Below, piece by piece: positions 37,456 through 43,034 of a stretch of 64,000 bases of DNA. Each line of letters opens with the position of its first letter. Positions within the stretch are counted from its first letter, which is position 1. This DNA is from Octopus vulgaris (Eukaryota), in NCBI GenBank assembly GCA_951406725.2, contig OX597834.1, positions 8,556,001 to 8,620,000 of the forward strand, given 5' to 3'. Below the pieces are notes generated by a model. That model saw nothing but the letters and a program-made list of their open reading frames with translations, was not told where the DNA came from and searched no databases. A program made the position numbers and the translations under genes.

Positions 37456-38133
37456 CGAGGTCTGACCAATAAGTCGCCGGACAGTTGTCAGAATAACAGA
37501 TCTAAAACACTAAGAGTGAAGTCGCTTGGCAAAGATTGACCTTTGAAGCTGCTGCGCATGCGCACTAAGTTTTACGTACAGGCTCACTTCCGCTGTTTAC
37601 ATCAATGCTTGGAAGGAAAGTTGTAGCGTGCGATCGTCGCATTGACCATGGCAGAGAACGTTGCCATGGCGATACCTGCTCGGATGCCTACGTAATGTTG
37701 GAGAACGTGTAGGGAGGGGAGTGTATGAGCGCACACTGAAAAATACATCGCAGGTGTCCTTGCAGCTGTGAAGGGAAATCGTCGAATTACCATCTGTGAC
37801 TTATCAGAGGATGTACAGATTAGATACGATTCTGTTTAGTCCATTATCACTGAAGATAGGCGTATGAGACGCGTGTCTGCCCAGTTTGTGCTAAAACTAC
37901 TTTCAGCTGACCAAAGGGATACTCAGGTTTCGAGAACGAGGAAAACTTTTAGGAAAATTGCGTTCGCTTGTGAGCAGGTATCGCTATGATTTTTGAAAAA
38001 TTTGATGCATATTTTCTTATCAACTTTCTCTGCCATGGTCAATGTACGATCACATACGCTACAAACGTTGGTTTCAAGCACTGCTATAAATTGTGGAAGT
38101 AAGCTAAAATGTTAAAACTCAGTGCGTATGCAC
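37456..38133 (+). mobile_element. Mariner-derived non-autonomous element with long subterminal inverted arms
   Basis: TA|cgaggtctgaccaataagt looks like a TIR start. The interior reads KYIAGVLAAVKGNRRITICDLSEDVQIRYDSV*SIITEDRRMRRVSAQFVLKLLSADQR (mariner HTH plus the linker equivalent to WVPHEL). 38021-38133 is the reverse complement of about 37553-37664. Confidence 0.8.
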
Positions 38134-38905
38134 TGTTGTTGTTTTTAAGCAAAGTCATTATGCCAAAATTATTAACACATGCTCCGGTTCAATTTCTCTC
38201 CTCTCTTCTTAGTCAATTGGTTAAAGATGCAACTAAATAATCGATTATCGATTATTAGTTTAACTTATGTAAAAAAGGTCGTTCACATTTATCTGTTTTT
38301 CTTTCTATTTCTGAAACCAATCAAGGTTCTTTCTTGCTAATTGCAATCTCTTCAGTGACTTTTATTCCGTTACGGAGGCCGAGTTTGTTTTTCCTTGAGA
38401 ATTTGTTGCGTGCCACTGAGTGTGTGCCAATGTGCGCATGCGCTTGCATTTTTGTGTATGTATGTATGTATTTATGTATGCTTCTGCATGTGTGTACTCC
38501 CTTGTGCTTGTGTCTGTATGTGTGTGTATTTCTGGCTTTGTGGACGGGTATGCTTGCGTGAGTTTGTGAGTGTGAGTTTATATGCGTGTGTGCAAGTGCG
38601 CCTGTTGTGCATGCATGTGTGTATAACTGTCTGCATATGCTAGGTATGTGTATGCCCTGTATGTATATATGTGTGCGTGTGTTCGCGTGCATGTATGTGT
38701 GTGCCCGTGTGTGCCCGTGTGCGTAGTGTTTCTGTGTGTTTAACTGCATGTCTACCTATTTAATAATCTATCTATCTACATACCTACCTAACAACCTAGT
38801 TATATATGTATAAATTTTCGTGGGATCGATAAGAGTATCCAACACAGGGATTTGTGATGTGTCTCATCGATCTCGTTTGTGTAGTGATATGTGTGATGTC
38901 GCAAG

Positions 38906-39345
38906 GGGGCTAGCTGGTAGAAACGTTAGCATGCCGGGCAAAATGCTTAGCAGTATTTCGTCTACCTTTACGTTCTGAGTTCAAATTCCGCCGAGGTCGA
39001 CTTAGCCTTTCATCGAAAGATACTCCAGGAATGAGAACCCGGGTTCTCAGAGAAGTCGATTAATAGATCTCATTTTTGATACACGTCGCAAGTGGGTGAG
39101 CTGGGAGAAACCTTAGCACGCCGAGAGAAATGCTTAGCAGTATTTCGTCTACCTTTACGTTCTGAGTTCAAATTCCGCCGAGGTCGACTTAGCCTTTCAT
39201 CGAAAAATACCTCAGGAATGAGAACAAAGGTTCGCAATTTCCCCGAGACACCTGATGATTGGTGGAGGGTAAATCAGCCGAACGGTTGTGTTAATAGCAA
39301 ACAAGATGAGGACAAGCATCCGTCAAATGTAAATAATGTAAATGC
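38906..39345 (+). mobile_element. Two tandem chimeras: family B tRNA head fused to a hammerhead-bearing module
   Basis: The B head runs to gcctttcatc and then switches to gaaa(g/a)atac..caggaatgagaac in both copies. The second copy continues gacac-CTGATGA-..cagcc-GAA-cgg-TT-gtgtt and ends aatgtaaataatgtaaat. Confidence 0.8.
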
Positions 39346-39836
39346 AGTATCTGTGAATCAAATTTTACGATTTTAAAAAAGAAAACTCAGTAAAACTGAA
39401 AGATGACGGTAATTAAGCAATGTTTACTTATTTATTTTATTTTTTTATTTCATCTAGTTTCAGCTCACGAGCTGTGGCCATGCTGGGGCACCGCCATTTG
39501 GCGTTGCTACATGATTTTACTTCACGAATACTTTTTAGCAATTGCCATTTGGTGCATGAGAGAGTTCGATGTACCTCCTGCCGTGAAGTTGGTTCATCTG
39601 GGACACCTGACAGGAGGAGATCCAGTTTTATGTAAAATATAGGTGAAGAAGTAATGTCTTGCTAGGCACATTAGAATACTCTCAAATAGAATACTCTCAA
39701 ATGGTTTCAGAGAAGTCCATTAATAGATCTCATTTTTAATACAAACTGCAGATTGTGGAAATTGTAAAGATAATTTATGAATACATCGTATAATAGTTTC
39801 CATAATAAATTGTTTATTTTTTCCTTCATTTCTCAG

Positions 39837-42480: not shown

Positions 42481-43034
42481 GTTATATCTTACTCTATGAT
42501 GAAAATCCTACAAGTTCAATCAGCTATAGTATTTTCGATATAAAAGAATTTAAAAAATTATCTGCGCTCAATAGATATGCACGAGAACGACTGTGTTGTC
42601 ATTTATAGCTCTAAAGTTACACATCTATTCTAAAAGCACATCAGTTTTCTCATACTTCTTACGTTACACGGGCAAAGGTGAGATTTTTTGGGGGAAAGTA
42701 TTTAAAATTCTCTTAAACTACCAAGGCTAAAGACTATATATGCTACTCTATCCCTATACAACCCAAAGAATCTATTTTCTGAACGTCTGGAAAATATAAA
42801 ATAATCATCACAGCGTGTAGTTTGCATTTGAAATATATATGTATATATAGGAGTTCGACTCCCGGCAGTGACCTGAATAGTAATAACAACAACAAACAAC
42901 GACAACGACGACGACGACGAAAAATACCTCAGAAATGCGGTAATGACAAACAAATAAGGCAAGTGATTAGGCAAATGAGGTAAGGACAAATAAATTAGGC
43001 ACGTGATATACAAAAACTAATAAATTCATTTAAT

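Follow-up and report, generated by a model that had tools for sequence, protein, structure and literature searches.

The SINE heads, the junction and the hammerhead at the locus

Two copies of the head of a SINE, referred to as family B, lie on the forward strand of the window (the 64,000-nt stretch of Octopus vulgaris DNA analysed here). Each stops at GCCTTTCATC (39005–39014 and 39192–39201) and enters a different module directly, as had been described in the first-pass annotation (Table 1). The majority continuation of the 71 aligned family-B heads, CTTTCGGGG, is absent from copy 1. Around the CATC overlap other module copies read ...ACATCGAAAA, and family B reads ...TTCATCCTTT. The body that follows the head in family B, presumably resembling a Deu/Nin SINE domain, was not found between 36,000 and 44,000 except for a 24-nt match on the minus strand.

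Table 1. Coordinates of the features at the locus, numbered from the first nucleotide of the window
Feature	Position	Strand	Remark
Upstream duplicate of the ~660-bp unit 39085–39743, with internal deletion of ~470 bp	38898–39085	+	89% and 93% alignments
Family-B SINE head, copy 1, SINE body missing	38903–39014	+	71 distinct family-B heads aligned
Copy-1 boxes	A-box-like 38915–38925; B-box-like 38979–38989	+	Read from sequence
First ~30 nt of the module, ending before the hammerhead	39011–39046	+	
Family-B SINE head, copy 2, SINE body missing	39090–39201	+	
Copy-2 boxes	A box, decayed, 39102–39112; B-box-like 39166–39176	+	Read from sequence
Junction, 4-nt overlap CATC, found at the end of the SINE head as well as in the sequence that normally precedes the module	39198–39201	+	
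Module, 5'-truncated pseudo-LTR of a Penelope/Poseidon-type element	39200–39343	+	
ORF of the element, first ~42 codons, read through the hammerhead	39218–39343	+	ATG at 39218; family ORF opens here
Minimal type I hammerhead, predicted dead here	39247–39292	+	Family cut site between 39287 and 39288
Stem I, second copy	GACAC 39247–39251; GTGTT 39288–39292	+	
Core, second copy	CTGATGA 39252–39258; GAAC 39280–39283	+	
Stem II, second copy	39260–39264; 39275–39279	+	3/5 pairs kept
3' end of the duplicated unit	39703–39743	+	Second occurrence at 39042–39083

Family-B heads are dense across the window, where they occur at about 18 places. A second decayed pseudo-LTR fragment is found at 42851–42945. 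It retains the B-box half of the tRNA-like head described below, then an AAT/AAC/GAC tract, and ends ~20 nt into the module. The stretch at 37780–37920 resembles, by eye, a decayed mariner-type transposase fragment. Rfam and ARAGORN reported neither a hammerhead nor a tRNA in the window, the weak Rfam matches being microsatellite noise, and the output of a generic repeat finder was dominated by microsatellites.

The junction 20-mer, searched with at most one mismatch, has two matches in the 2.8-Gb assembly, both inside the window, and the reversed control has none. The count of independent junction loci called for at the outset is thus one, an outcome at odds with the self-cleaving Pol III retroelement that had been proposed for this junction. 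Positions 38899–39049 match 39086–39236 at 89%, and 39042–39083 match 39703–39743 at 93%, from which it follows that a unit of ~660 bp was duplicated and that ~470 bp were then lost inside the upstream copy. Both heads also share rare variants, one of which is present in 1 of 69 other family-B heads. Read in this way, the two junction copies are a single event plus one old local duplication, as the first-pass annotation had itself suspected. Its statement that the junction occurs twice holds for the two genome matches but not for the hammerhead, which the ~30 nt of module in the first copy do not include; similarly, of the flank gtcgcaag said to be common to both copies, only gtcgc is true flank, aag being part of the family-B consensus. 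The flanks of the locus recur with few differences on contigs of runs X15 and X17, and hence the locus is not an assembly artefact. A raw RNA run, of which ~6% was read and whose 150-nt reads behave as unstranded, form no piles at start sites and mix paralogues, contains 2,834 and 2,365 reads that leave the family-B head at the two junction points into the normal SINE body, and its depth immediately past the second junction is ~1 per mate orientation.

That family-B head and hammerhead together constitute a propagating self-cleaving Pol III retroelement, as originally read, finds some encouragement in the presence of two junctions and in the head-then-hammerhead order, which resembles SM-alpha, but this is scarcely credible. 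Both matches share one locus and one flank, so the literal reading is refuted for this assembly at up to one mismatch in the 20-mer, and essentially no RNA reads cross the junction. Furthermore, a sample of 200 module copies was drawn with anchors lying 3' of the hammerhead, taking the first 100 matches listed for each of two 23-mers (all on contig C1, and including a few cases of two arms from one insertion); in none of them does the 30-nt neighbourhood of the module 5' end contain the end of a family-B head. In the window, the good A box of copy 1 is coupled to no more than the short piece of module, the hammerhead of copy 2 is broken, and neither copy combines an intact A box with an intact hammerhead. 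The window chimera is best read as dead debris, and the flagged junction itself carries little weight.

The hammerhead parts originally pointed out, stem I gacac/gtgtt and CTGATGA, are present in the second copy. To call its GAAA and stem II slightly decayed was too mild: in the core, A15.1 is replaced by C and C15.2 by G, and two stem II pairs are lost, so that the core is no longer intact. With the fold imposed, the window copy reaches −2.7 kcal/mol versus −11.2 kcal/mol for the family majority, and the stretch folds no better than its shuffles (z −1.41). In the family, all 11 core nucleotides are kept in 78 of 176 copies, and the intact-core pattern has 3,084 exact matches in the genome and none in the control. 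The consensus that the first-pass annotation had suggested building does carry GAAA; this family-majority hammerhead has an intact core, helices I and II and a palindromic helix III whose self-duplex is worth −5.7 kcal/mol. Rfam returned no hammerhead or tRNA match on the better family copies.

The retroelement to which the module belongs

The module is, on the strength of its sequence, the pseudo-LTR plus ORF start of a Penelope/Poseidon-type retrotransposon, the clade label being a provisional one based on architecture and motifs. The window module is 89% identical to a typical copy and terminates at the shorter of the two 3' ends of the family. In the 29 best other module copies the upstream partner is an (AAT/AAC)n tract, often together with a tRNA-like head that is not that of family B. 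Upstream from this head lie a GIY-YIG-type C-terminus and then a PLE-type RT; of the 30 endonuclease copies that ranked best, the head comes next in 28 and is joined by the module in 22, and in copies retrieved via the 5' part of the ORF (L384, L389, L404, L409 and others) the module passes directly into the ORF. The unit begins with the RT and GIY-YIG ORF and its stop; after a spacer of ~45 nt come the tRNA-like head, (AAT)n, the module, which contains ATG and hammerhead, and the next ORF, the pseudo-LTR repeating the ORF start in partial tandems.

The majority over copies gives a single frame of 835 codons, from the module ATG through the hammerhead to the stop ~45 nt before the head, with a PLE-type RT and, at the C-terminus, a GIY-YIG domain. 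An apparent frameshift at codon 189 was traced to a deletion in the backbone copy and discarded. Comparison with P0003, an independent database protein, gives 56% identity over 829 positions; the N-terminus coded by the hammerhead is common to both, in support of the ORF start at 39218 in the window. Two further proteins, P0001 and P0002, are 75% and 66% identical. RVT_1 matches the parent ORF at E 2.7e-6, below the Pfam cut-off; homologues carry PF00078 and some also PF01541. The Pfam GIY-YIG model does not match the endonuclease of the parent family, whose YSIPCSCG..Y.GET motif is taken to mark it as GIY-YIG. A genome search with that model recovered other PLE families, with the module repeat in 0 of 20 loci. 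One of these families is young (L099, L104, L410, L411), with a 781-aa open frame in 16 of 148 GIY-YIG matches. Its 3' region carries CCAAT/TGACGT repeats in tandem and about as many TTTT runs as expected, and a simple pattern finds no canonical hammerhead there. A presumed sister family with a different head was dismissed, all 30 loci from the search with a 61%-identical relative being the same family.

Two variants of a module 23-mer have 6,198 and 2,211 exact matches, i.e. at least 8,409 arms, and from divergence the total would amount to tens of thousands. Copies have an inverted 5'-truncated arm and an optional tail of 30–40 bp. In the 200-copy sample an inverted 5' arm is present in 118 and the tail motif in 71, the 3' ends fall into two discrete clusters ~33 nt apart (105 and 74 copies), and a single copy continues into the ORF; of 101 joints between arms examined for the family, 50 show overlaps of at least 2 nt. 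Inverted 5' arms and a two-cluster tail are footprints described for PLEs (excerpts of PMC8557442). The suggestion that PLE machinery moves the module was therefore well placed, since the module belongs to a Penelope-like element and moves by it.

It was also considered that RNAs cut by the hammerhead serve as templates. Five sense ends fall at module positions 86–92 against 2.4 expected (P 0.10), and a second set contributed a single sense end, at 86, with nothing at 88–92; the excess was weak and not replicated, and the idea was dropped. A GTTAAC palindrome is located in the same region.

The tRNA-like head, the 5' ends and the promoter question

The search for the usual upstream partner of the module was fruitful. 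As judged by sequence comparison, that partner is a tRNA-derived head, different from that of family B, which opens the pseudo-LTR. Of 10 genomic tRNAs set against it, Arg-TCT comes nearest (50/76 columns, z 8.0), followed by Arg-TCG (z 7.5). Judged against the A/B box consensus, its A box TGGCGTAGTGG and B box GTTCGATTCC are canonical and have tRNA spacing; the (AAT)n tract follows. A head 25-mer has 1,467 exact matches in the genome, and the module lies downstream in 24 of 30 head-anchored loci. ARAGORN and Rfam do not recognise the cloverleaf, although boxes and spacing are kept. Thus the earlier idea of a Pol III-type ribozyme element fails as a family-B fusion but survives in the sense that the module is normally preceded by another tRNA-derived A/B-box head.

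Two side observations concern the same sequences. At L178:138–2854, seven tRNA-Cys-like genes lie within 3 kb, two of them with altered anticodons. At L036, L044, L046, L238 and other loci, other retroelements sit inside the (AAT)n tract and the gap between head and module is 0.3–0.9 kb; the C-terminus of the LINE pieces found there is presumably Dong/R4-like.

The short unit of head (head C) and module, with its tRNA-derived A/B-box head at the 5' end, invites the question of whether the head-(AAT)n-hammerhead copies are an SM-alpha-like SINE lineage of their own, with independent masters and mobilised in trans by the PLE. Short copies do outnumber ORF-linked ones and 59 of 91 stop at the head; in addition, three sites differed at P<0.01 in a first scan, and one head site still differs between short and ORF-linked copies when 30 pattern-selected loci are dropped (P 0.017). 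No site is fixed and diagnostic, however, and the difference disappears in the unbiased 100 copies (P 1.0, with only 7 long copies). Short and ORF-linked copies share identical haplotypes, so that the two are not shown to be separate lineages. Since every part of the short unit is also present in the end repeat of the PLE, such a lineage is improbable; what had been taken for a separate SINE-like unit, head plus hammerhead, is better seen as the terminal repeat of the autonomous element.

The 5' ends of the 200 sampled copies fall in the module in 47, in or behind the microsatellite in 34 and inside the head in 28 cases, and 91 copies reach head position +12. The 59 that stop do so at −8 to +12, at 0.040 per nt versus 0.002–0.004 elsewhere (10–17-fold), and this pile was replicated in two sets (28/41 and 31/50). 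The boundary lies where a Pol III start is expected, 4–7 nt before the tRNA-equivalent +1. Of nine ends scored at −9 to −30, seven represent snap-back palindromes with TGCCC-NN-GGGCA at their centre. In the sampled copies the interval between −8 and −25, into which the TCACT motif falls, is free of genuine ends; TATAA and TCACT stand directly upstream of the 5' boundary of the parent element.

These ends may also be read with the head as a passenger, the history of the locus being the same: a SINE or pseudogene of tRNA origin, tailed by (AAT)n, would have inserted into the 3' UTR of an ordinary Pol II PLE, RT stalling and snap-back at the hairpin would produce the 5' pile, and the lack of TTTT described below would reflect composition or chance. 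It is a serious rival, judged possible rather than probable. Head plus (AAT)n does resemble a minimal SINE insertion, 12 of the 13 ends at −7 have the snap-back A at −8, and 5' palindromes and TATA/Inr motifs are known traits of PLE pseudo-LTRs (excerpts of PMC3846280). The head-start hairpin, at −2.1 kcal/mol, is more stable than an internal control hairpin (−0.3 kcal/mol), at which 15 of 172 copies stop, so that the hairpin alone could still cause the pile. Against a passenger stand the agreement of the boundary with the expected Pol III start, the emptiness of −8 to −25, where the TCACT motif is located, and the retention of boxes and tRNA spacing in a head whose cloverleaf is unrecognised by ARAGORN or Rfam.

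The TTTT content bears on the same choice. The 2,629-nt majority sense strand of the parent contains no TTTT run and so no internal terminator of this kind, where a codon shuffle predicts 2.9 (P 0.026), a codon-position shuffle 4.0 (P 0.015) and a null with Phe codon choice freed 4.6 (P 0.004). As controls, ten PLE ORF stretches comparable in T content were taken from the same genome (those of 14 fetched with an ORF of at least 250 aa); they have 1–9 runs, at or near expectation, and eight distant relatives on metagenome contigs have 2–12 runs and no B box; none of these 18 stretches has a TTTT P below 0.086, so that same-clade PLEs lacking the head are not TTTT-depleted, which tells against a passenger. 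In favour of a passenger, P is only ~0.03 and three LINE-like fragments are TTTT-poor as well (0 vs 2.2, 1 vs 1.7 and 0 vs 0.7 expected). The test sets a majority sequence against natural copies, and with the most conservative null its outcome is a modest one; in one natural, decayed copy of the parent family there are three TTTT runs.

In the raw RNA run, 456 reads have an inverted loose end at the head start. The run says nothing on Pol III, because its reads are unstranded and its paralogues mixed. At L013:1440–2450 (run X24), many transcribed copies have inverted arms, as seen from opposite-strand joints that include these 456 reads; insertions of this type would form double-stranded RNA in host transcripts. 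RNA editing and paralogue differences are inseparable in the X24 data.

The reading preferred over a passenger, and held to be rather probable as a whole, is that of a one-off local junction whose ribozyme half is the end repeat of a PLE with its own tRNA-type promoter, putatively read by Pol III. From the sequence features, the parent element may be transcribed by Pol III. A more far-reaching version is put forward tentatively: an autonomous protein-coding PLE would be transcribed by Pol III from a captured tRNA-Arg promoter, would have had TTTT purged from its 2.6-kb sense strand, and would have spawned tens of thousands of SM-alpha-like promoter–hammerhead copies from its own 5' end. Speaking against the promoter reading are the modest TTTT result, the unusual translation route that an uncapped Pol III RNA would need, and the position of the hammerhead cut site inside the ORF.

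In the proposed mechanism, the head would act as the Pol III promoter, with RNA starting 4–7 nt before the tRNA-equivalent +1. The RT of the element would start internally at either tail site, as for anole Poseidon in vitro, and run to the RNA 5' end. Starts in the upstream repeat would yield many solo repeats and starts in the downstream repeat the ORF-bearing copies (by extension from excerpts of PMC11167929). The palindromes suggest that the cDNA end then folds back on the TGCCC-NN-GGGCA hairpin to give the inverted arm. In the window, a cDNA would have halted at the (AAT)n tract or module edge and was likely linked via CATC to a family-B SINE already in place, the body of which was lost; insertion, later deletion and template switch would look alike and cannot be told apart.

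Comparison with known systems

Ohshima and Okada reportedly described, in 1994, the abundant octopus tRNA-derived SINEs OK, OR1 and OR2, any of which may be family B or the short head–module unit, presumably from the same animal group. Octopus OR2 is listed as a CORE SINE (excerpts of PMC4758252). Searches of full-text literature found no account of a PLE whose pseudo-LTR includes a piece derived from a tRNA; the family may already be described in Repbase, Dfam, the 1994 report, Ferbeyre 1998 or supplements. The available portion of a 2026 octopus repeat annotation (PMC13282606) does not contain the word 'ribozyme', and that of a 2026 retrozyme preprint contains neither 'tRNA' nor 'octopus'.

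The minimal type I hammerheads of PLEs (excerpts of PMC4209133) served as the architecture reference for the ribozyme of the module. Common to both are the 5-bp helix I, the extra nucleotide between A9 and G10.1, the G10.1-C11.1 pair, the palindromic helix III and an occurrence mostly as solo copies or opposite-strand pairs. In those excerpts there is no essential difference from this type, of which the window copy is a decayed member.

The parent element closely resembles Poseidon of Anolis carolinensis (excerpts of PMC11167929) and Pen2/Pen2a of Adineta (excerpts of PMC3846280). They share a single ORF of ~835 aa with RT and C-terminal GIY-YIG, a pseudo-LTR that includes the ORF start, a hammerhead over that start, an optional ~33-nt tail, an inverted 5'-truncated arm and a palindrome at the 5' end of the pseudo-LTR. 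The ORF of anole Poseidon begins inside the hammerhead, and its RT initiates internally in vitro, at two sites bounding the tail (excerpts of PMC11167929). Rotifer PLEs have sharp pseudo-LTR boundaries, 5' palindromes and TATA/TCACT motifs, for which TATA/Inr promoters were proposed; the excerpted text does not mention tRNA or Pol III (PMC3846280). Unlike these PLEs, as far as the excerpts describe them, the octopus element opens its pseudo-LTR with a tRNA-Arg-like A/B-box segment and (AAT)n, and its sense strand is free of TTTT.

A PLE that combines a tRNA promoter with a 5' boundary where the start is expected and an ORF free of terminators offers a sharp test for Pol III as the driver of an autonomous retroelement. 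PLE promoters are thought to be of the Pol II type. This is one reason why the parent family matters; the other is that, according to excerpts of PMC10886601, the autonomous partners of tRNA- or 5S-bearing TRIMp3 elements must use Pol II. TRIMp3 (Cassandra, Helenus, Ajax) likewise has a small-RNA-derived Pol III promoter in its terminal repeat, possibly from a SINE insertion, but comprises non-autonomous LTR elements, whereas the repeat described here belongs to a protein-coding PLE (same excerpts).

With SM-alpha and Sj-alpha of Schistosoma (excerpts of the review PMC6765202) the octopus repeat has in common a short, abundant unit in which a hammerhead comes after a promoter of the Pol III type. 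In that review SM-alpha is called non-coding and often tandem, whereas the octopus unit is the terminal repeat plus ORF start of an autonomous element and occurs as solo copies or head-to-head pairs. The parent PLE is a possible model for the origin of promoter-plus-hammerhead repeats such as SM-alpha, and would, if the proposal is true, mark a direct path from a PLE to a ribozyme SINE.
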